From Escherichia coli (GTDB taxonomy: Bacteria > Pseudomonadota > Gammaproteobacteria > Enterobacterales > Enterobacteriaceae), in NCBI RefSeq assembly GCF_050320075.1, contig NZ_CP190018.1: DNA of 64,000 nucleotides; one strand, 5' to 3'. Each line of letters opens with the position of its first letter. Positions within the stretch are counted from its first letter, which is position 1. Made by a program: the position numbers and the translations under genes. Under the pieces are notes generated by a model. The model was not told the origin of the DNA and did not search any database. It was given only the letters and a program-made list of their open reading frames with translations. Below, in pieces: positions 33,047 through 43,802 of the stretch.

Positions 33047-35023
33047 ATGCAGCTTAATCATATCGTTAAAAGTCTGCTAATAACGGGATTATTCACCACC
33101 AGTTCTTTACCTCTCCTCGCGGCGGAAGCTCCTAAAGACGCCACCGCAGCCACGCAACAAGCAAACAATTTACTCTACAACCAGTTGCCGTTTGCCGATA
33201 ACACTGACTTTACTGATGCCCATAAAGGTTTTATTGCCCCTATCCCTCAAGACGTGATTAAGGGCGAACAAGGGAATGTTATCTGGGATCCACAACATTA
33301 CGCTTTTATCAAAGAAGGCGATAAAGCCCCTGATACGGTGAATCCGAGTTTATGGCGTCAGGCGCAACTGATAAATATCAGCGGGTTATTCGAAGTAACT
33401 GAAGGTGTCTATCAGATTCGCAATCTCGATCTATCAAATATGACCATCATTGAAGGCAAAGAGGGTATTACCGTCGTTGATCCCCTTGTTTCAGCAGAAA
33501 CAGCCAAAGTGGGTATGGATCTCTATTACAAAAATCGCGGCAAAAAACCGGTAGTGGCGGTTATCTATACACACAGTCATGTCGATCACTACGGTGGTGT
33601 TCGTGGCGTAATTGATGAAGCTGACGTTAAATCAGGCAAAGTTAAAATCTATGCGCCAGCCGGATTTTTGGAGGAAGCCGTTTCCGAAAACATCATGGCT
33701 GGCAATGTTATGAGCCGACGAGCCAGTTATATGTATGGCAACTTATTGAAACCTGATGTTAAAGGCCAGGTGGGGGCTGGACTGGGAACGACTACTTCAG
33801 CAGGAACAGTCACGTTGATTGCTCCTACTAACTACATCACCAAAACCGGACAAATAGAAACTATTGACGGGTTGACTTATGATTTCCTGATGGCGCCAGG
33901 TTCTGAAGCGCCTTCTGAAATGCTGTGGTTTATTGAAGAAAAGAAACTGATCGAAACCGCTGAAGATGTCACGCACACCCTTCATAACACCTATTCGCTG
34001 CGTGGGGCTAAAATTCGCCAACCGCTGCCGTGGTCAAAATATATTAATGAAGCTCTCAATTTGTGGGGTGATAAAGCCGAGATTATTCTCGCTCAACATC
34101 ACTGGCCAACCTGGGGCAACGATAACGTGGTCAAACTGCTTAAAAGCCAGCGTGATTTGTATCGTTACATCAATGATCAAACTCTGCGCATGGCTAATCA
34201 AGGGATGACCCGTGATGAAATTGCCGCAAACTTTAAACTGCCCTCTTCACTGGCTAACACCTGGGCGAATCGCGGCTATTACGGTTCGGTAAGTCATGAC
34301 GTGAAAGCAACTTACGTGCTTTATCTCGGCTGGTTTGATGGTAACCCCGCGACGCTTGATGAACTGCCGCCAGAAGAAGGCGCAAAAAAATTCGTCGAGT
34401 ATATGGGCGGTGCTGATGCCATTTTACAGAAAGCCACACAGGATTATGACCAGGGTAATTTCCGCTGGGTTGCCCAAGTTGTTAGTAAGGTGGTGTTTGC
34501 CGATCCAAACAACCAGGCAGCGAGAGATCTGGAAGCTGATGCGCTTGAGCAGTTAGGCTATCAGGCTGAATCTGGGCCGTGGCGTAATTTCTATCTCACT
34601 GGTGCACAGGAATTGCGTAATGGCGTACAAAAATTACCAACACCAAATACTGCCAGCCCAGACACCGTGCGTGCGATGACGCCGGAGATGTTCTTTGATT
34701 ATCTTGCCGTCCATATTAATGGTGAGAAAGCGGCAGATGCCAAAACCGTGTTGAATTTCGATTTTGGTGAAGATGGCGGCACCTATAAAGTGGAGCTTGA
34801 AAATGGTGTTCTCAATCATACCGCTGGTGTAGAGGCTTCGGATGCTGATGCCACTATCACTCTGTCTCGTGATGTATTGAACAAAATTGTACTGAAAGAA
34901 GAGACGCTGAAAGAAGCCACGGCCAAAGGAGATGTCAAAATTACTGGCAATGAGGAAAAACTCAACGAGCTGTTAGGTTATATGGATAATTTTGAATTTT
35001 GGTTCAATATAGTGACACCATAA
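33047..35023 (+). CDS. Periplasmic alkyl/aryl sulfatase-like metallo-beta-lactamase-fold protein (YjcS/SdsA1-like)
   Basis: 658-aa product with signal peptide, HSHVDHYGG metal-binding motif and a long C-terminal dimerisation/SCP2-like region; AT-rich relative to its neighbours; not at this locus in K-12 as far as I recall. Confidence 0.8.
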   Translation: MQLNHIVKSLLITGLFTTSSLPLLAAEAPKDATAATQQANNLLYNQLPFADNTDFTDAHKGFIAPIPQDVIKGEQGNVIWDPQHYAFIKEGDKAPDTVNPSLWRQAQLINISGLFEVTEGVYQIRNLDLSNMTIIEGKEGITVVDPLVSAETAKVGMDLYYKNRGKKPVVAVIYTHSHVDHYGGVRGVIDEADVKSGKVKIYAPAGFLEEAVSENIMAGNVMSRRASYMYGNLLKPDVKGQVGAGLGTTTSAGTVTLIAPTNYITKTGQIETIDGLTYDFLMAPGSEAPSEMLWFIEEKKLIETAEDVTHTLHNTYSLRGAKIRQPLPWSKYINEALNLWGDKAEIILAQHHWPTWGNDNVVKLLKSQRDLYRYINDQTLRMANQGMTRDEIAANFKLPSSLANTWANRGYYGSVSHDVKATYVLYLGWFDGNPATLDELPPEEGAKKFVEYMGGADAILQKATQDYDQGNFRWVAQVVSKVVFADPNNQAARDLEADALEQLGYQAESGPWRNFYLTGAQELRNGVQKLPTPNTASPDTVRAMTPEMFFDYLAVHINGEKAADAKTVLNFDFGEDGGTYKVELENGVLNHTAGVEASDADATITLSRDVLNKIVLKEETLKEATAKGDVKITGNEEKLNELLGYMDNFEFWFNIVTP

Positions 35024-35037
35024 ATTTACTGCATACC

Positions 35038-35060
35038 GGGCAGGTATCCTGCCCTTTTTT
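35038..35060 (+). terminator. Rho-independent terminator after the sulfatase gene
   Basis: gggcagg / tat / cctgccc followed by tttttt. Confidence 0.7.
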
Positions 35061-35069
35061 GGTTAAAAA

Positions 35070-36167
35070 ATGGCTGAACGAAGAAAAACTCATCACTCAT
35101 GGAAAACCCGCCGCGATATGGTTATTCGCGGCATGACGATTAGTTTGCCATGGTTTGCTTTTATCAATGTCAGTTTTGCATTGATAATTTTGCTGCGCCG
35201 TGTTCTGTTTAATGACCTTACTCCACCCTGGTTAAATGAAAAAAGCCTTATACATTCTATTGATATATCTGCAACGGGTATTCTGCTGATTTGCAGTGGT
35301 TTACTACTCATCCCTCGGCAAAAAACATTACCTATCCAGGTGCTATTAGTTGCCCTGAGCCTGCTATGGTCATGGTGTAGTTATCACTTTATTGCGTACT
35401 GGACGCTGCAGTTTGCTTATCCACTATGTGTATTATTAATGCTTAGTGGCGTTGTCGCACTTTATTTCCATACCCCATCATTGCTCGCATTTGTCATTCC
35501 CTTATGGTTCACCACTCCAATAGCGAGTCTTATGCTTAATCAACAGATCAATATTCATTTTGCTGTTGTATGGTGTATTTTTTCACTGGCGCTATATGGT
35601 GGGCGACTCATTTTGTTACGTTGGTTTGAAGAAGCATGGGTACAAAACAGTTATAACAACCAGTTAATTAATCGCCTTGATGCATTAGCACATCGTGATC
35701 CTTTAACTGGGATAGCAAACCGACGTGCAATGAACAGTATCTTACACGACGCGATGGATAACGGCGGGTCATTTGCTCTTATTATGCTGGATGTCGATTT
35801 TTTTAAACGTTACAACGACACTTACGGGCATCCTGCTGGGGATCGTTGTCTAATACAAGTTGCCGACGCTCTACAGCGTTCAACTCGCCAGTCGGAGGAT
35901 GTTGTTGTCCGTTATGGTGGCGAAGAGTTTGCCATCATACTTTTTAATGCAACATTGCCGGAAGCAGAGACGGTAGCAGCCAGAGTGAAGCAAGAACTTA
36001 AACTGGCAGCTATCCCACATCAGGCATCTGCTGTTAATGCATTTGTTACGGTTAGTCAGGGGATTACCTGTTCTGCTCCCGCAAAAACGGCTGAACAAAT
36101 TATTTCAGATGCCGACGCTGCGTTATACCGGGCGAAAGAAAGTGGGCGAAATCGATGGGCTTTATAA
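35070..36167 (+). CDS. Membrane-anchored diguanylate cyclase (GGDEF domain, intact GGEEF active site)
   Basis: About 5 predicted N-terminal TM helices, then DPLTGIANRR ... RYGGEEF ... YRAKESGRNRWA; start codon uncertain (alternatives at MVIRG and MTISL). Confidence 0.8.
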   Translation: MAERRKTHHSWKTRRDMVIRGMTISLPWFAFINVSFALIILLRRVLFNDLTPPWLNEKSLIHSIDISATGILLICSGLLLIPRQKTLPIQVLLVALSLLWSWCSYHFIAYWTLQFAYPLCVLLMLSGVVALYFHTPSLLAFVIPLWFTTPIASLMLNQQINIHFAVVWCIFSLALYGGRLILLRWFEEAWVQNSYNNQLINRLDALAHRDPLTGIANRRAMNSILHDAMDNGGSFALIMLDVDFFKRYNDTYGHPAGDRCLIQVADALQRSTRQSEDVVVRYGGEEFAIILFNATLPEAETVAARVKQELKLAAIPHQASAVNAFVTVSQGITCSAPAKTAEQIISDADAALYRAKESGRNRWAL

Positions 36168-36169
36168 GC

Positions 36170-37063
36170 ATTAGGGGACTGGACAGATTACGTCTCTCCT
36201 CGCTTAACAAGGGCTGACGGAGGGTAATAATTGTCTATAGCTATCTTCTTAGCGATGTCTTTCTGGTATCACATTGGATCGGTGCAATTATTTTTCCTTT
36301 AATACCCATTATGTTAAGAAATTCAGAAACAGCTGTAATCTCATTGTTTTTTTCATTCGTCTTGATCTTCCAAGGAATCTGACTGTGCATTATTGAGAAC
36401 ACACTAATAACGTGAATCGCTCCCTTGCGACGACTCTTGTCATAAGAGTACCGGAGCGTTTTTCCATCAATTGCAATGACGTCTTTATCATCTGAAGAAT
36501 GGCAGTCAAGCATCCAGTTAATAAAGCACTCATAAAATTTTTCAGGACTGATACAGGATACAACTCTGGCAATGGTATCGTGAACAGGAATACCATTATC
36601 AAAATCACCATATTGCTTCAAAAAATCGAGATGTGTTTCCCCAAAATCCTCTATATCTTCCCAGCCTTCTGCACCCGAAATAACGGCACAAATAGTCAAC
36701 AGTAGAATATCCGATAATTTATGTTCCACTTTCCAGGCTTGTCTGTAATCGGGGATAATAGAAATATGTCCCATCAATTTTTTAAGTTCCATTTTGTTCT
36801 CCTTAATTATGTAAGGAGTATTTGATCATGTATACGCAATAAAAAACAGCTTCAGGTAATGAGGAATATCTCAATTGTTAAACATAAAATGCGAATTGTC
36901 TAGTACAAAAAAGCAGCGTTACGTGATCTTTCCGTGGATCGTCAAATTGTTCGAGAGAAAATACCAACATGATGGATTTTACTGTAAAAGTAATGTCGTA
37001 GTTTAAAAACTCATCATCCGGTAAAGCCTTGTGGGGCGTGGGCTTTCATACTTTTACCCTGAT
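36170..37063 (-). mobile_element. Truncated H-repeat (ISAs1-family) element remnant
   Basis: 5' end region (aacatgatggattttactgtaaaagtaatgtcg...cttgtggggcgtgggctttcat) is shared with the second H-rpt copy at about 43700..43800; the coding region breaks off after about 180 codons, next to the cyclase gene stop. Confidence 0.6.
36241..36792 (-). pseudogene. H-repeat-associated (ISAs1-family) transposase, 3'-truncated
   Basis: 183-aa N-terminal fragment ([21 protein letters not shown]...) aligning with the N-terminus of the copy at 42493..43629. Confidence 0.75.
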
Positions 37064-37377
37064 GTCTGCTATACGCCGGACACCCTTTACGTAGCATTCG
37101 GAATTCACCCGTAAATTTATCACGGCGGTATCACGAAACCTCCGGTTCTGATGCCGCTTAGGACTAACGACACGTCAACACAGGTTCGGGTTTATTCATT
37201 TCACTGTATCTCATATAATCTGAGCACTCCCCCTGCGCTCGCTACTATGACTCTTTACCACAGCAACCGGGGTTGTTTGGGATCGGCTTTCAACAGCAGA
37301 TCCCGGTGGCTATTGCAAGTAAGTCTACTTTCCACATCAGTGTTACTGACACAGAAAATAATGAGTTATGATCCTTG

Positions 37378-37863
37378 TCATATTTTTAATATAGCCCCAT
37401 GAGCTATAGGATCAAAACCTTCTAACCATGAGGTGTTTTTATCGAATAATGCATCTGTTATATTTATATCGCCATATCTATCACATAATAAATTAGCGCC
37501 ACATAAGTCAGCACCAGAAAAATTTGAATCTTTAACGTCTGCATTGCAAAAGGTTGAATTAGTTAATATAGCACCCTCAAAGTTTGCACCTATTGACCTT
37601 GAATTACTAAAGTCACTTCCAGTGAAATCTGAGTTATTAAGAATAGCGTTCATCAGAGCCGCATTGCGAAAGACAGCATTTCTAGTTGATGTATGTTGAA
37701 TCATTACATTTCTTAAATGGGAATTTTCAAATTTCGCCCCATCAAGACAATAACCATTGAGGATGGCACGATGTAGATCCATCCCGCTAAAATCATATCC
37801 AGCAAGAGTGGTACTATCTATATCAAGAAATTTATTGGTTATTAAAAACGCGATTCTTATCAT
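37378..37863 (-). CDS. ydcD: Pentapeptide-repeat protein, probable immunity protein for the Rhs C-terminal toxin
   Basis: 161-aa product made of A(D/N)Lxx-type repeats ([27 protein letters not shown]); its ATG overlaps the rhs TGA (ATGA); AT-rich. Confidence 0.75.
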
Positions 37864-40800
37864 CTATTCCCCCAATCATCTAACTCCGGAAAAATTTGGC
37901 TAAACGGATATAGTGGTGCCGATAATGGACGCGTACCTGGCCGCTCAGGAGGAAGTTTATCACATAACAGACCCGCAACCATCCTGTGATTACCATTAAC
38001 AATCACATTCCCATCCATATCAACCGGTGGTGCTCCACTACCATCTTCCAGCATTTGTACGTAGTGAGCTACTACGGGTACTGAGACTTTTTGTTGTACT
38101 GTCAACAAGGGACTGTTGGCCACAACCATCCTGATGTTTTCAGGTGTCGTAGGTAAACATTTAGTCTTCTCTTGACTAAAGGTATCATCCCACAATTTTG
38201 TTAAACCCATCACTGCCTGTTGTCTGTATTTATCCATGGGGTCAGCAATCAACCAAGATGGACCTGACTGCTCTATGGAATCTTCTCCGGAGAGACCCAA
38301 CGGATCTATCTTAGTAGTTGGATTCAATGGATACTGATACAGGTTCCATGCACCTCTTAGCCCAATGGGATCCTGGGTGATATACCGCCCCTGCAACGGG
38401 TCATAGTACCGGTTGCGGTTATAGTACAGCCCCGACTCCTCATCATACTGCTGCCCCGGCAGACGGTACGGCTGTTGCAGTTGCTGCGCGCTGGTTTCGC
38501 CCAGCAGGTTTCCCCACTCGTCATACTCCCCCTGCCACGCCGTTTCCCCTTCCGGGCTGATGAGCGCCTGCGGCAGCCCCCGGTGGTCGCAGTGGTAAAG
38601 ATGAAGTGTCCTCTCCGGGATGTATTCCGCCTCCATCTGGTTTTTCATCTGTTCCGCCGTCAGCCCGCACTGCTGAAGCCATGCCTCACTCTCCGCACTC
38701 ACCGCACCCGCGCGCAGTTCCCGCTCCAGCCTCCCCAGCATCACCGACAGCTCCGCCGGTAGCGTCACCCCCGTGTCCTCCTGCAACACCTCCGCCAGAC
38801 TCCGGTGCCGCGCCTTCGCCTGTTCACCATTCTCTGTTTCGATTCTGATGAGCGGCGTGAAGCTCCCCGGCTGGTATACCGTCTGGATACGCGTGGTGCC
38901 GGTCTGTACCGTCGTCAGCCTGTCACCGTCCCACCCGTACCAGGTCTCCTCCGGTTTACGCGACAGCGACATCCACCCCGTCAGGTCACGCTCCCGCCGC
39001 CACACCCGTTTCCCCGTCCGGCGGCCCAGCGGGTCATAGAGGTAGCGGCTCTCCACCTGTGGCTCGCCGTGCTGTATCCGCGTGTAGAACACCAGGCGGT
39101 GCTGGCTGTCGTAATGGTAGTGGTGCGTCCGCTCGTCGTGCATCCGTATCACCCCTTCCGGGATACGGTCCGTCTTCTCCGCCAGCCTGCCGTATTCATC
39201 GTAGCGGTAGACATAGTGCGCATCTTCCGTGATGCGGTTATCCGGCCACGCCGTGAAGGTGCTGTCCGGGTGCAGTTCCGGGTCCGGCAGCCGGTTTCCT
39301 GCCGGGTCCGTCGCATACGGGATATCGATATCCAGGTTCGCCGCCGTGGTGTGAACGCCCGTCAGTCTTCCCGTGTCGCTGTAACGGTACTTCCGGCTCT
39401 CCTGCGGGCCGCTGATGCGCACCAGTTGCCCGTTATCGTTCCACGTATACTCACGGTCAAGCTGCGGAAGGTTCAGGTGCCTGCTCCGGAGCTGCCCTGT
39501 GAGGGTGTACGCCGTGGCCTGTTCGTACCCCGCTGTACTGCCCGCCCCGCCGAAGCTGCGGGCCGTCTCACGGTGCAGCCGGTCCCGCGTGTACTCGACC
39601 AGCGGCGTTCCGCCCAGCTTCATCCCCGCAAGATAACCGCTGCCATACGTCAGCCACTCCACCGGCGGCAGACCGTCCGGCTCCTGACGGGTCGCCAGCC
39701 CCTGTTCGCTGTAGACGTGCCTCGTCTCATGCTCCCACAGCATCTCCCCCGTCTCCTGGTTCTCCACCGTCTGCCGTTCGCCCGTCAGGCGGCCTTTATC
39801 GTCATAGCCGTAGTGGACCGCCACACGGTGGCCTTCGCTCAGGTGGCTGATTTCTGTCAGCCAGCCGTGGTCGTCATACTGCCACTGCTCCGCCGGGTCG
39901 CCGTTCACCGTCCGGTGCGTGATGCGCCCGGCGTCATCGTAGTACCACTGCGTGACCTGCCCCTCATCCTCGCTGCGGATGAGCTGCCCTGTGGCGCTGT
40001 ACCGGTAACGCTGTGTCCTGCCGTCAAAGCCGCGCTGCTCCGTCAGCCTGTCCACCGGGTCATACCGGAACGTGGACTGGCTGCCGTTCTCGTTGGTCAG
40101 CACGGTGATGCGCCCGGCGGCGTCATACTCCATGCTGCGCGTCAGTCCGCCCTGCGTGGTGCTGACGGCCTTTCCCCACGCATCATACTGTGTCTCACTC
40201 CGGCTGCCGTTCGGGGCAATGATAGCGGTGAGGTCGCCTGCGGCGCTGTACTCATAACGGGTTTCACGTCCCTGCGCATCCTTCTGACTGACCAGTTGAC
40301 CACGCGGGTTATAACTGCTGTAAGTGCTGATGCCTTCCTCCCGGTGAACCGCCGTCCTCTGACCGTACCGGTCGTATTCATACCGCGTCGTGTACCCTGA
40401 ACAGTCCGTAAATGCCTGAAGCTGACCGTACCGGTTTCGCGTTATTCTCCGCCTCACCCCGGTTCCGTCTTCCACCGCACAGGGCAGGCCACTGCGGGAA
40501 GAATCATAAAACCAGCGCGTAATGTTACCGTTGCGCGAGACCTCTTCCGCCAGCCTGCCCTGACGGTCATATTTCCGGCTGCGGCGCAGCCCGTCCGGGT
40601 ACGTCACTGACGTCAGTTGCAACTGGTTGTTGTAACCATACCGTACCGTCCTGCCGTCCGGCAGTATCACTGAAGTCAGCTTTCCCGACGCCATATGCAG
40701 CCGGTACTCCGTCCGCCGTCCCGCCGCATCCGTCTGCGCCTTCAGCCTCCCCGCCTCATCATACTCGCTGCGGGTGATGCTCCCGTCCCCATACTCCTTC

Positions 40801-42071
40801 TTCACCACCCGCTTCAGGCCGCCCTCGCCCTCCGTGTACAGCACCTCCCGCCGGTTCAGGCTGTCCGTGATGGTCACGCGGTCCTGCCCGTACTCAAAGC
40901 GGTAGTCCAGCCCCTCCGGGTTGACCTGCTCCGTCACCCGACCGGTATCATCATACCGGTAGCGGCTCTCCGGCCTCCCCGCATAATGGTGCGCCACCAT
41001 CCGCCCGGCGTGCTCCGCATCATAAGTAAACCCGCGCACCTGCGTCCCGCTGCGGTCATACACCGCCCGCAGTTCTCCGCTGGCCGTGTACGTGTAGCGC
41101 GCCAGCGGCGCAGTCGGCAGTTCATCCGGGTATGCCGGGTCGTGTGTCAGCCATACCGCCTCCAGCCGGATACCGTTATCGGCACCGTACTCTGTACCGG
41201 TGGGCAGCGTGTCGGGGAAAAACTGAGAAGAGGAAACAGAACGGGGACTGGCCGGAGAAGATAAAGAAGACTCGCGCTGTTTACGGAAGGCTTTCGCCCG
41301 CTGCGCCTGTGTGGTCAGCGCCAGATGAAAACGGCGGCCCGCGCCGTCCGTCACCCCCGTCACCGCGCCCGCCGCTTCCCCCTCTGCCGCCCGGTGGAAG
41401 GCCAGCGTCCGCCCGAAGCCGTCCACCACGCCCGTCAGCACCCGGTATGCGGGCGGCTCCGGCGGCAGCACCTCGTCCGCCTCCGGCACCCGCTCCGGCC
41501 AGCCGAGTATCCACCACGGCCCCTGAAGGCTGTTTGTCGCCAGGTACACATGCGGGCTTAAGCGGAGACTCTCCGGCAGCACCTGCCAGAGCGCGCTTAG
41601 CGGCTGCGAACTGTGCTGCTCCGCCACCCCGCCCCTTGCCAGCCAGAACGACTCGCTGCGGCTGTAGCTTATCTCGCCGGGAAACAGCGGCTCAAAGTGA
41701 ATGCTCCTGCCGCCACTGTCGTTGAGTATCAGTTCCCGCTCATGAACCTGTAAGCGGATATCGAAGGGCGCTTTCCAGCCGGGACCAAACACCCCCACCG
41801 GCGCGGGTGTCCTGGTCCGGTAGCTGCTGTAGGCGCGGGAAAGAATAAACGGCAACGGGCCGGGCAGCGCAAGATCCGTCTCGCCCGGCAGCACCTTCGC
41901 ACCCAGTAGCGGGTTCACCGGGTTACCCTTCTGCTCCTCCACCGGGCTGTTGGGACACACCGAGCAGGCCACTCCCGTCGGCGCACCTATCAGCACCCCC
42001 GCTGAACCCTGCACAATATCCAGTCCCTTGCGGGTCATATCGCCCTGTCGCGCCGCCGGTTTTCCGCTCAT
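37860..42071 (-). CDS. rhsE: Full-length Rhs family polymorphic toxin (PAAR-like N-terminus, YD-repeat shell, variable C-terminal tip)
   Basis: 1403-aa product; N-terminus [13 protein letters not shown] (PAAR-type); many YD repeats; DPIGL core-boundary motif about 175 residues from the C-terminus; GC-rich core with an AT-rich tip. The gene symbol follows K-12 synteny, where this gene is a truncated pseudogene as I recall. Confidence 0.85.
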
Positions 42072-42479: not shown

Positions 42480-43802
42480 CCGCAGGGCGAAATCATGAAG
42501 GCCCGCAGCCAGCAAGGATTAGAGAAAGGTATTCATTCTTACGTCCTGCCCGCTTTTGCTTGCGTTTAATACCCGCTTTAAAGCTATTCTCTGCGGTCAG
42601 TAAATTCATCGCGATATGTCGACAAACTGCCAGATTTTCTCCCGCTTCTCCACGAACAATCTGGCATTCATCTTCCCGCATCCCCATATCAAGTCGCCAG
42701 TGCAGTTGATTTTCTACCGACCAGTGTGCTCGTGTTGCTTCCAGGAGTTCTTTCGCCGTAAGCGTCACCGAACTTATGTAGTAGCGAAGAATACACTTCT
42801 CTGATTTCACCGCTGTTTCTCCTTCCTGTCTGCTCGCCAGCACTATTCCTATCGTGCTCAGCTCTGACCATTCATAAGCTAAATCACCCAGAGCGGTTAA
42901 ATCATGGCTCACAATGCAGCATCGTGTATCTTCCCGTCCATGCCCTTTTTCCTGCGTGCTGTAACTGTCATACCTCTCACCCAGCCACATTGTCGGCGAG
43001 TACCCGTTATCAAACGCCTCCGCTAATTTTCCCTGATTTCCTTTCAGCGCCAGCAGGTAACCGGCTTTCTTTTTCAGAATTTCACGGGCGATTATATGCT
43101 GGCAACCCATTGCATCCAGCGTGACCAGACACCCTTTTAATTCCAGCAACTGGAGCCGTTCCGGGATCGCCGTTATCTCATTCGATTTTGCCCCTGTTTT
43201 CACCTGCCCCAAAACCAGACGATTTTCTGCGCTAAAAGCACTGACCCTATGGATCACGGCATTACGTTTCGATTTATCGTAAGTACCCCGTAATGACTTA
43301 CCATCAATCGCCACAACAGAGCCTTCAGACAACGTGTGACAGTCCTTCATCTACTGGATAAAAAGGGGCTGTAATTGTTTTGCTGAAATCATTCCCATCA
43401 CTCGGGCAATCGTGTGATGGGAGGGGGTGCCATTTTCAAAATCACCATACAGGCGTAACCATTCCAGATGCTCCTCACCAAAATCAGCAATTTCTTCCCA
43501 TCCTTCAGCGCCACCGATAATGGCGGTGATCGTCAGAAAAAGGATATCCGCCAGGCTGTAACTGGTTTTCCAGGACTGGCGATAATCGTGAATAATTGAA
43601 ATTTGATCCAAAAGGCTTAGTCCGTTCATGGTGTGCTATCCATCAAAAAGAAAGGATAAGATCACACTGAAATAAGATGGTCAAATTGATCGAAAAAAAA
43701 GATCAACATGATGGGTTTTACGATAAAAGTAATGTCGCGATTTAAAAATTCATCATTCACCAAAGTCTTGTGGGGCGCGGGCTTTCATGCTTTTTCCCTG
43801 AT
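42480..43802 (-). mobile_element. H-repeat (ISAs1-family) element upstream of rhs
   Basis: About 1.3 kb unit holding an ISAs1-type transposase reading frame; 5' end sequence shared with the remnant at about 36900..37063; boundaries approximate. Confidence 0.6.
42493..43629 (-). pseudogene. H-repeat-associated (ISAs1-family) transposase interrupted by an in-frame amber codon
   Basis: ORF-track pieces 43351..43629 and 42493..43350 are contiguous in one frame, separated only by TAG (plus-strand cta at 43351..43353): ...LQPLFIQ*MKDCHTLSEG. Confidence 0.8.

Follow-up and report, generated by a model that had tools for sequence, protein, structure and literature searches.

The 64,000-nucleotide stretch of Escherichia coli DNA analysed here (NCBI RefSeq assembly GCF_050320075.1, contig NZ_CP190018.1; hereafter the window) contains an intact Rhs gene whose variable C-terminal tip is predicted to adopt a divergent ParB/sulfiredoxin (ParB/Srx) fold, followed by an overlapping gene for a pentapeptide-repeat protein (PRP). 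With moderate confidence, the two are read together as a nucleotide-dependent enzyme toxin of the ParB/Srx type, carried on Rhs and blocked through direct binding by a dedicated PRP. The Rhs scaffold of this pair is ordinary and its toxin class was predicted computationally in 2012; the new element is the PRP immunity class, which is undescribed in the literature searched. To our knowledge, PRPs are very common, yet, gyrase protectors aside, a partner is known for few of them, and the ParB-fold toxin domains predicted in 2012 have never been characterised experimentally. The toxin-PRP pairing links two protein classes of poorly understood function and, in many phyla, couples a PRP family of ~160 amino acids (aa) genetically to a defined protein partner.

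The Rhs carrier, the core/tip boundary and the predicted fold of the tip

The toxin gene and its partner comprise the following features, in window coordinates:

37860..42071, minus strand: intact Rhs gene, 1403 codons plus TGA, a single uninterrupted open reading frame (ORF; NCBIfam RHS_core)
41928..42071, minus strand: N-terminal 48 residues with the literal string PAAR at residues 5-8 (from the sequence; not the Pfam PAAR domain)
41694..41927, minus strand: DUF6531, residues 49-126 (Pfam PF20148, E 6e-18)
38484..41090, minus strand: GC-rich YD/RHS-repeat shell, residues ~328-1196 (13 significant Pfam RHS_repeat matches and RHS PF03527)
38292..38525, minus strand: Rhs-associated core end, residues 1183-1260 (TIGR03696, E 1.4e-22, ending at residue 1260)
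38358-38372, minus strand: DPIGL, residues 1234-1238, first core-end motif
38292-38306, minus strand: DPLGL, residues 1256-1260, second core-end motif, 17 residues after DPIGL
38160..38291, minus strand: variable linker, tip residues 1-44 (protein residues 1261-1304), predicted to be disordered (pLDDT 55-63; not conserved in the family)
37863..38159, minus strand: predicted ParB/sulfiredoxin-fold toxin core, tip residues 45-143 (protein residues 1305-1403)
37983..37994, minus strand: GNHR motif, protein residues 1360-1363 (42-sequence alignment; hhalign against human Srx and Bacillus subtilis ParB)
37378..37863, minus strand: putative immunity gene, 161-aa PRP, its ATG overlapping the Rhs TGA (Pfam Pentapeptide matches)

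The Rhs gene is whole, as had been claimed in a reading of the bare sequence that preceded this work (the original prediction), and its 1403-aa product scores 2513 bits against RHS_core (cut-off 2000; residues 1-1260 of the 1261-position model). The NCBIfam model YD_repeat_2x matches eight stretches of the protein, the Pfam RHS domain (PF03527) lies at residues 1157-1191, and the shell is homologous to the solved Rhs shells of Tse5 (8cp6), RhsA (7q97), Tse15 (8uy4), RhsP (8h8a) and Tre23 (7pq5). The described division into a GC-rich YD shell and an AT-rich tip is borne out by a GC fraction of 0.58-0.72 across the shell against 0.35-0.45 across the tip and the downstream gene. The PAAR-like N-terminus that had also been proposed comes down to four letters, for the Pfam PAAR_motif (PF05488) fails to match residues 1-1200 even at E<=10. 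Compared with the solved effectors, the E. coli protein shares the YD shell and the C-terminal DPxGL autoprotease region, while differing in its toxin tip and immunity protein; neither a vgrG nor a chaperone gene adjoins its own gene, and Pfam detects no PAAR in it.

The boundary between core and tip had been set at DPIGL, with a tip of about 175 codons, and DPLGL had been regarded as a possible trace of an earlier tip replacement; all three points require revision. Both RHS_core and TIGR03696 stop at residue 1260, which is the L of DPLGL, and the Rhs protein at the rhsA locus of E. coli AST20, which bears an unrelated tip, is near-identical through DPIGL-(17 residues)-ID(S/P)(M/L)GL and diverges directly after. 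Similarly, the alignment with the deposited chain 8h8a_A (1152 residues) reaches position 1151, opposite Rhs residue 1259, and DNA homology with other E. coli Rhs cores extends to window position ~38319, between the two motifs. On these alignments the core/tip boundary is the second motif, DPLGL, which is the canonical second half of a DPxG-x17-DPxGL core end; because the boundary falls at residue 1260, the last L of DPLGL, the tip comprises 143 codons (37863-38291). A recombination scar at DPLGL was ruled out by the ends of the two models and by the AST20 comparison, and no relic of an earlier tip swap is seen here, since DPIGL and DPLGL are both part of the conserved Rhs core. An autoproteolytic release site is predicted after L1260.

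The tip could not be assigned by eye in the original prediction, and Pfam, NCBIfam and PDB sequence searches likewise gave no match for it; it is nevertheless no orphan, its family numbering at least 329 cluster representatives. A word-indexed homologue search with the tip had returned two fragments only, probably because Rhs proteins cluster by their cores, and the relatives were gathered by running phmmer exhaustively over 1.84 billion cluster representatives, which gave 329 proteins at E<=1e-3, of which 117 reached <=1e-10. The match lies at the extreme C-terminus in all of them, in proteins ranging from ~100 to 2388 aa; the carriers are Rhs/YD, CdiA-like (VENN/filamentous-haemagglutinin, FilH) or HINT proteins, in which YD repeats, DPxGL and VENN motifs are frequent. 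An 80-aa protein, P0001, encoded on a 5.36-Mb NCBI contig, matches tip residues 58-118 at 98-100% identity before an unrelated tail, and is probably a frameshifted copy of the tip in another E. coli genome. At two further loci (L032, 4001-4294; L059, 4001-4292) a frameshift splits the ParB/Srx toxin domain in such a way that the apparent downstream ORF is the toxin core itself; these may be decaying copies or assembly errors.

The conserved unit of the family is ~100 aa, corresponding to tip residues ~45-143. Four residues are invariant in a 42-sequence alignment, Q66, G100, H102 and R103 in tip numbering (Q1326, G1360, H1362 and R1363 of the protein), and T49, S70, G84 and A106 are near-invariant, the consensus reading ...TxQxxVSxPxVQRYVxxIExGxxxPPIKVDGNxIVDGNHRYxAG.... 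The family motif is (D/E)G(N/H)HR with its G, H and R invariant, and the window copy reads NGNHR.

Several concordant lines, each weak alone, lead to the prediction that the tip core is a divergent ParB/sulfiredoxin-fold domain. The AlphaFold2 model of the core has pLDDT values mostly of 93-98, and its best structural matches are sulfiredoxin, the free serine kinases SerK and SbnI, and the N-domains of ParB, KorB and PadC, all with low scores. The Foldseek comparison that had been suggested as a check gave a divided answer: there was no significant match in the PDB, but AFDB50 yielded relatives up to 52-57% identical under the UniProt name 'ParB/Sulfiredoxin domain-containing protein', with the tip domain also found at the ends of RHS, filamentous-haemagglutinin/DUF637 and HINT proteins. 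In profile-sequence alignments with hhalign, GNHR falls on GCHR, the active-site motif of human sulfiredoxin (E 0.002; sequence checked against 1yzs), and on the B. subtilis ParB box GERR (E 0.01; checked against 6sdk). Neither Pfam ParBc (PF02195) nor any other Pfam family matches the tip or any of the 42 family members. With a ParB/sulfiredoxin fold and a motif of the nucleotide-phosphate-binding type, the tip looks like an enzyme.

The small alpha+beta nucleotide-binding domains of the ParB/Srx superfamily (sulfiredoxin, SerK, SbnI, ParB/KorB/PadC) have a G-x-H/R-R motif that aligns with that of the tip. The tip family differs in having Asn or His where sulfiredoxin has its catalytic Cys and the ParB GERR box its Glu, in lacking a helix-turn-helix or other DNA-binding domain, and in being deployed as a secreted toxin with an immunity partner.

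By fold, motif and carrier description, the tip fits the 'Tox-ParB' class, domains with a 'strongly conserved DGHHR motif' reported from RHS and filamentous-haemagglutinin proteins (Zhang, de Souza, Anantharaman, Iyer and Aravind, 2012, Biol Direct 7:18; PMC3482391). Shared features are the C-terminal ParB-fold domain, the RHS/FilH carriers, the DG(H)HR motif and a broad phyletic spread that includes MafB-type loci of Neisseria. A nuclease function was tentatively predicted for the class, ATP-dependent phosphotransfer was noted to be the only firmly established chemistry of the superfamily, and the immunity families of the class were given as Imm20, Imm27 and Imm-SuFu, the word 'pentapeptide' being absent from the text (Zhang et al., 2012). 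In contrast, the partner in the E. coli tip family is a PRP or a small HAD-like protein (mini-HAD); the family also has GNHR more often than GHHR and lacks a Pfam ParBc match, the two being compared by description. In the literature search, the term Tox-ParB was found only in Zhang et al. (2012), and no paper linked pentapeptide-repeat proteins to ParB-type toxins.

Probable immunity partners of the tip

The Rhs stop codon and the start of the downstream gene share the sequence ATGA at 37860-37863 (...GGG AAT AGA TGA / ATG ATA AGA), and the product is built of pentapeptide repeats, both as the original prediction stated: several Pfam Pentapeptide matches are found, and the five-residue register is unbroken from residue ~16 to 140, giving ~24 pentapeptides. 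In an AlphaFold2 (AF2) model of the fused tip and PRP, the repeats have pLDDT values of 94-99 (80-86 for the first ~15 residues) and form one-residue strands every five residues. The protein is acidic (isoelectric point, pI, 4.97 and net charge -6 for the window copy; family median pI 4.8). Its outward-facing positions are hypervariable with the exception of a ladder of H31-R32 and R51 on one face and of the conserved N- and C-terminal caps (...T.WP.GFDP...G).

To sample synteny, one genome per bacterial species was scanned for the tip motif, by which 64 loci were confirmed, with a callable downstream ORF in 61. A homologue of the window PRP, usually of ~160 aa, is encoded next in 51 of these 61 (50 at E<1e-5, best 1e-32), and its start usually overlaps or abuts the toxin stop. 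The hosts fall in at least ten phyla (Pseudomonadota, Bacteroidota, Bacillota, Planctomycetota, Myxococcota, Verrucomicrobiota, Gemmatimonadota, Actinomycetota, Fusobacteriota and Acidobacteriota), and the carriers differ in secretion route, being Rhs, CdiA-like, HINT and Gram-positive proteins. This recurrence in 51 of 61 loci and at least ten phyla indicates that the toxin-immunity pairing is real and conserved. The comparative evidence that the PRP is the dedicated cognate immunity protein of the tip is strong, and the designation of the gene as such in the original prediction has been upheld, both by this synteny and by decayed copies in an orphan array of E. coli AST20.

That array, at the AST20 rhsA locus, holds two pseudogene fragments of a 95%-identical PRP immunity gene (L002, 6920-7285) among NTF2-fold, Imm57 and DUF6258 genes and a fragment with a tlde1 domain, and documents earlier turnover of tips and immunity genes. 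Across the family, likeness between toxins does not run parallel to likeness between their PRPs, since the nearest toxins carry the most divergent PRPs. Those nearest toxins, at 54-61% identity to the E. coli tip, come from Neisseria lactamica and N. perflava (L003/L005), Aggregatibacter (L004) and a gammaproteobacterial metagenome-assembled genome (L006), with Cys-rich PRPs that match at E ~1e-5 to 1e-8 only; Pseudomonas toxins, 34-40% identical to the tip, have PRPs matching at E ~1e-31.

With Qnr, MfpA, McbG and AlbG, the PRP shares a right-handed quadrilateral beta-helix of A(D/N)LXX repeats, an acidic character and a place among resistance or immunity factors. It is, however, shorter (161 aa), lacks the Qnr loops, falls far under the family thresholds and is genetically tied to a protein toxin domain rather than to a gyrase-poisoning small molecule. 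Another parallel is offered by Tse6-Tsi6a of Stenotrophomonas rhizophila, in which a PAAR-Rhs tip of unassigned function is paired with an immunity protein resembling one annotated as a pentapeptide-repeat protein (July 2026 preprint, bioRxiv 10.64898/2026.07.13.738213). Relatives of Tse6 occur on Rhs, HINT and two-partner secretion (TPS) carriers in Actinomycetes, Planctomycetes, Myxococcota and Proteobacteria, a spread similar to that of the E. coli tip family. Its authors provisionally call Tse6 a nuclease, and the preprint differs in making no mention of a ParB/Srx fold; compared by description only, Tse6-Tsi6a may be the same family as the E. coli tip and PRP.

A second kind of partner was encountered in a sister subclade of Rhs tips, ~40-47% identical to the E. 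coli tip and marked by the signature ...TLQPxVSA...QPWTAPL...IQP, from Burkholderiales genomes and metagenomes. An overlapping HAD-like gene of ~116 aa stands in place of the PRP in six of eight cases, the HAD association as a whole being sampled in these 8 loci and 3 others. The mini-HAD genes and the related two-gene modules described below lie as follows:

L007, 1173-1529: mini-HAD
L031, 348-704: mini-HAD
L067, 2716-3063: mini-HAD
L069, 4849-5199: mini-HAD
L071, 2772-3125: mini-HAD
L072, 3065-3454: mini-HAD
L053, 3875-4809: standalone two-gene module, Bacteroidota
L061, 3947-4808: standalone two-gene module, Bacteroidota
L062, 3989-4815: standalone two-gene module, Bacteroidota

The HAD motifs DVDDT, CWS(S/T), KPNV and (I/L)DDQ are invariant in four aligned copies and the same in L071 and L072. 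The mini-HAD matches the TIGR01684 'viral phosphatase' model at E 1.6e-6, and a PDB profile search with its alignment gave weak HAD-type matches only (e.g. 38K/AC98, E 0.11). The mini-HAD may be an enzymatic immunity protein, a lead that adds interest to the system, and a partner with its catalytic residues kept suggests that the toxin product could be an enzymatically removable phospho-ester.

In the Bacteroidota modules, a standalone ParB/Srx-like protein of 109-150 aa with DGHHR and without a carrier domain is followed by a protein of 154-158 aa. Along its entire length, the downstream protein of L053 matches PF18143 HAD_SAK_2 ('HAD domain in Swiss Army Knife RNA repair proteins') at E 1.5e-22, and those of L061 and L062 resemble it by eye. 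Neither PADLOC, run on the standalone relatives, nor Pfam, run on a Bacteroidota one, returned a meaningful match for the first protein. The two-gene module may be related to the toxin-immunity pair.

Proposed mechanism and competing explanations

By analogy with known Rhs effectors, the YD-repeat shell would enclose the 143-residue tip, which would be freed by the DPxG-x17-DPxGL autoprotease after Leu1260 and delivered by a type VI secretion system (T6SS). Residues Q1326, G1360, H1362 and R1363 would be the counterpart of the nucleotide-phosphate pocket found in ParB CTPases and in sulfiredoxin, an ATP-dependent phosphotransferase, and the tip would work in the target cytoplasm as a nucleotide-dependent enzyme, most likely a phosphotransferase or phosphohydrolase, possibly acting on nucleic acid. 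ParB proteins are CTPases and the alternative immunity protein is HAD-phosphatase-like, which together suggest a nucleotide-dependent activity rather than the assumed nuclease; on fold, motif and HAD partners, a phosphotransferase or hydrolase appears more likely than a plain nuclease. The acidic, six-coil beta-helix of the PRP would neutralise the tip by direct binding, either as a mimic of a nucleic-acid substrate or as a simple occluder of the active site. Direct binding is proposed because immunity proteins of polymorphic toxins generally act in this way and because the PRP surface is hypervariable.

A bolder extension, which we regard as speculative and somewhat doubtful, is that Tox-ParB-type tips are kinase-like phosphotransferases that phosphorylate an essential nucleic acid, protein or metabolite, with stoichiometric blockade by a PRP, possibly a mimic of the substrate or of nucleic acid, and enzymatic reversal by a mini-HAD as two strategies of immunity. 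If true, interbacterial toxins would have a mode of action not seen before, and the tip would be the first natural protein-toxin ligand assigned to a family of pentapeptide-repeat proteins.

A number of observations weigh against the picture of a nucleotide-dependent toxin blocked by its PRP. Most members carry D/E ahead of GNHR but the window tip carries N there, and the core of this tip is acidic at pI 5.1; neither feature points to strong binding of nucleic acid. The AF2 model of the tip joined to the PRP by a linker, built with a paired alignment, is confident in both domains but has an overall pTM of 0.63. The HAD-like partners might be catalytically irrelevant binders, and within 9 kb on either side of the Rhs gene there is no adjoining vgrG, chaperone, PAAR domain or T6SS gene.

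The principal competing view of the toxin itself is a metal-dependent DNase or RNase whose nucleic-acid cleft is blocked by the PRP as a DNA mimic, nucleotide binding being irrelevant. PRPs are classic B-DNA mimics and one partner family, HAD_SAK_2, is named for RNA-repair proteins; in addition, a nuclease has been argued on the grounds that nucleases predominate among polymorphic toxins and that ParB domains occur in nucleases resembling those of restriction-modification systems, although the same authors trace the 'ParB nuclease' label to an erroneous study (Zhang et al., 2012; PMC3482391). The invariant polar residues of the tip family are only Q, H and R, with no invariant acidic metal ligand and, in the window tip, an N ahead of GNHR, and a stand-alone phosphatase cannot mend a cut strand, such that an HAD partner fits poorly; on balance a nuclease is unlikely. 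The original prediction had instead followed the PRP towards a type II topoisomerase target, in which case the tip would poison DNA gyrase or another such enzyme and the PRP would protect the target as a DNA mimic, not by binding the toxin. The protein is indeed a genuine PRP, similarity to QnrB1 (E 1.7e-11), MfpA and AlbG/McbG-like structures can be detected, and it is acidic, as DNA mimics are. Yet it scores far under the NCBIfam cut-offs (Qnr 33.2 against 240 bits, MfpA 34.3 against 360, QnrB 33.4 against 460), has only 161 aa and ~24 pentapeptides without loop insertions (a point that excludes only a Qnr-type protein, because MfpA also lacks loops), and bears a hypervariable surface that fits co-evolution with a variable toxin rather than with a conserved gyrase. 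Its linkage is to the toxin domain whatever the secretion system, that domain is an enzyme-like ParB/Srx one, and the sister tips use HAD-like partners which could not act as gyrase protectors. A classical gyrase poison is unlikely, and protection of a topoisomerase by the PRP is, in our judgement, very improbable; the proposed target is not supported. More broadly, an immunity protein that mimics DNA may still hint at an activity related to nucleic acids.

Two other explanations concern the role of the module rather than the chemistry of the tip. PRPs are known as accessory components of the T6SS, notably TvpB (PMC13373197), and the window PRP could in principle be such a secretion or assembly factor of T6SS spikes, with the true immunity gene elsewhere or absent. 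TvpB-type PRPs are encoded with vgrG, TvpA (DUF2169) and TvpC (DUF3540), none of which is near the E. coli PRP. The latter tracks the toxin domain, overlaps the toxin stop codon with its start, has decayed copies among immunity genes in the orphan array, and is paired also with carriers independent of a T6SS, namely CdiA-like, HINT and Gram-positive ones. On the absence of these neighbours and the non-T6SS carriers a TvpB-like accessory was rejected, and its probability is put very low. Alternatively, the module could be an inert relic in the source strain, never delivered, with only immunity against the tips of neighbours under selection. ISAs1 pseudogenes on both sides, the lack of any T6SS gene within +/-9 kb and of a Pfam PAAR domain, and the failure to find a convincing promoter agree with this. 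Both reading frames are nonetheless intact over 4.7 kb, and the tip-plus-immunity segment (a 1.1 kb query, window 37300-38420) is present at >=99% identity in 143 of 5426 complete E. coli genomes (~2.6%), leaving a relic quite unlikely.

Setting in the rhsE locus

The window is E. coli chromosome and the locus is rhsE; gene order was read from strain YZLc1-3, where RefSeq annotates a 100%-identical stretch and names the identical Rhs copy 'RHS element core protein'. The order there is yddE, nhoA, yddH, pptA, an alkyl/aryl-sulfatase, a GGDEF protein, an ISAs1 fragment, the pentapeptide repeat-containing protein, the RHS element core protein, an ISAs1 pseudogene, a yncG pseudogene, ansP and yncE. 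The neighbours within +/-9 kb of the Rhs gene are the ISAs1 pseudogenes, the GGDEF gene, the sulfatase, yncG and ansP. The Rhs module is bordered at each end by remains of an ISAs1 (H-repeat) transposase gene:

36241..36792, minus strand: ISAs1 (H-repeat) transposase fragment at the downstream edge of the Rhs element (ORF; YZLc1-3 RefSeq 'ISAs1 family transposase, frameshifted; incomplete')
42493..43629, minus strand: ISAs1 transposase pseudogene in two ORFs, upstream of the Rhs gene (YZLc1-3 RefSeq 'ISAs1 family transposase, internal stop')

The upstream pseudogene sits where a vgrG or promoter region might be expected, and the 420 bp separating it from the Rhs start have a GC content of only ~29-34%. 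Promoter and terminator scans around the immunity gene and upstream of the Rhs gene gave counts at or below shuffle expectation. A 531-codon ORF lies antisense to the Rhs shell at 38805-40400 on the plus strand; like several further long antisense ORFs, it seems to be a side effect of the 65% GC of the repeats and not a gene. Further upstream, at 44041-44647, the glutathione-S-transferase homologue yncG is present as two ORFs (frameshifted, with an internal stop, in the YZLc1-3 RefSeq annotation). On the other side, between pptA and the Rhs element, the interval 33047-36167 encodes the alkyl/aryl-sulfatase (658 aa) and a membrane GGDEF diguanylate-cyclase (365 aa).

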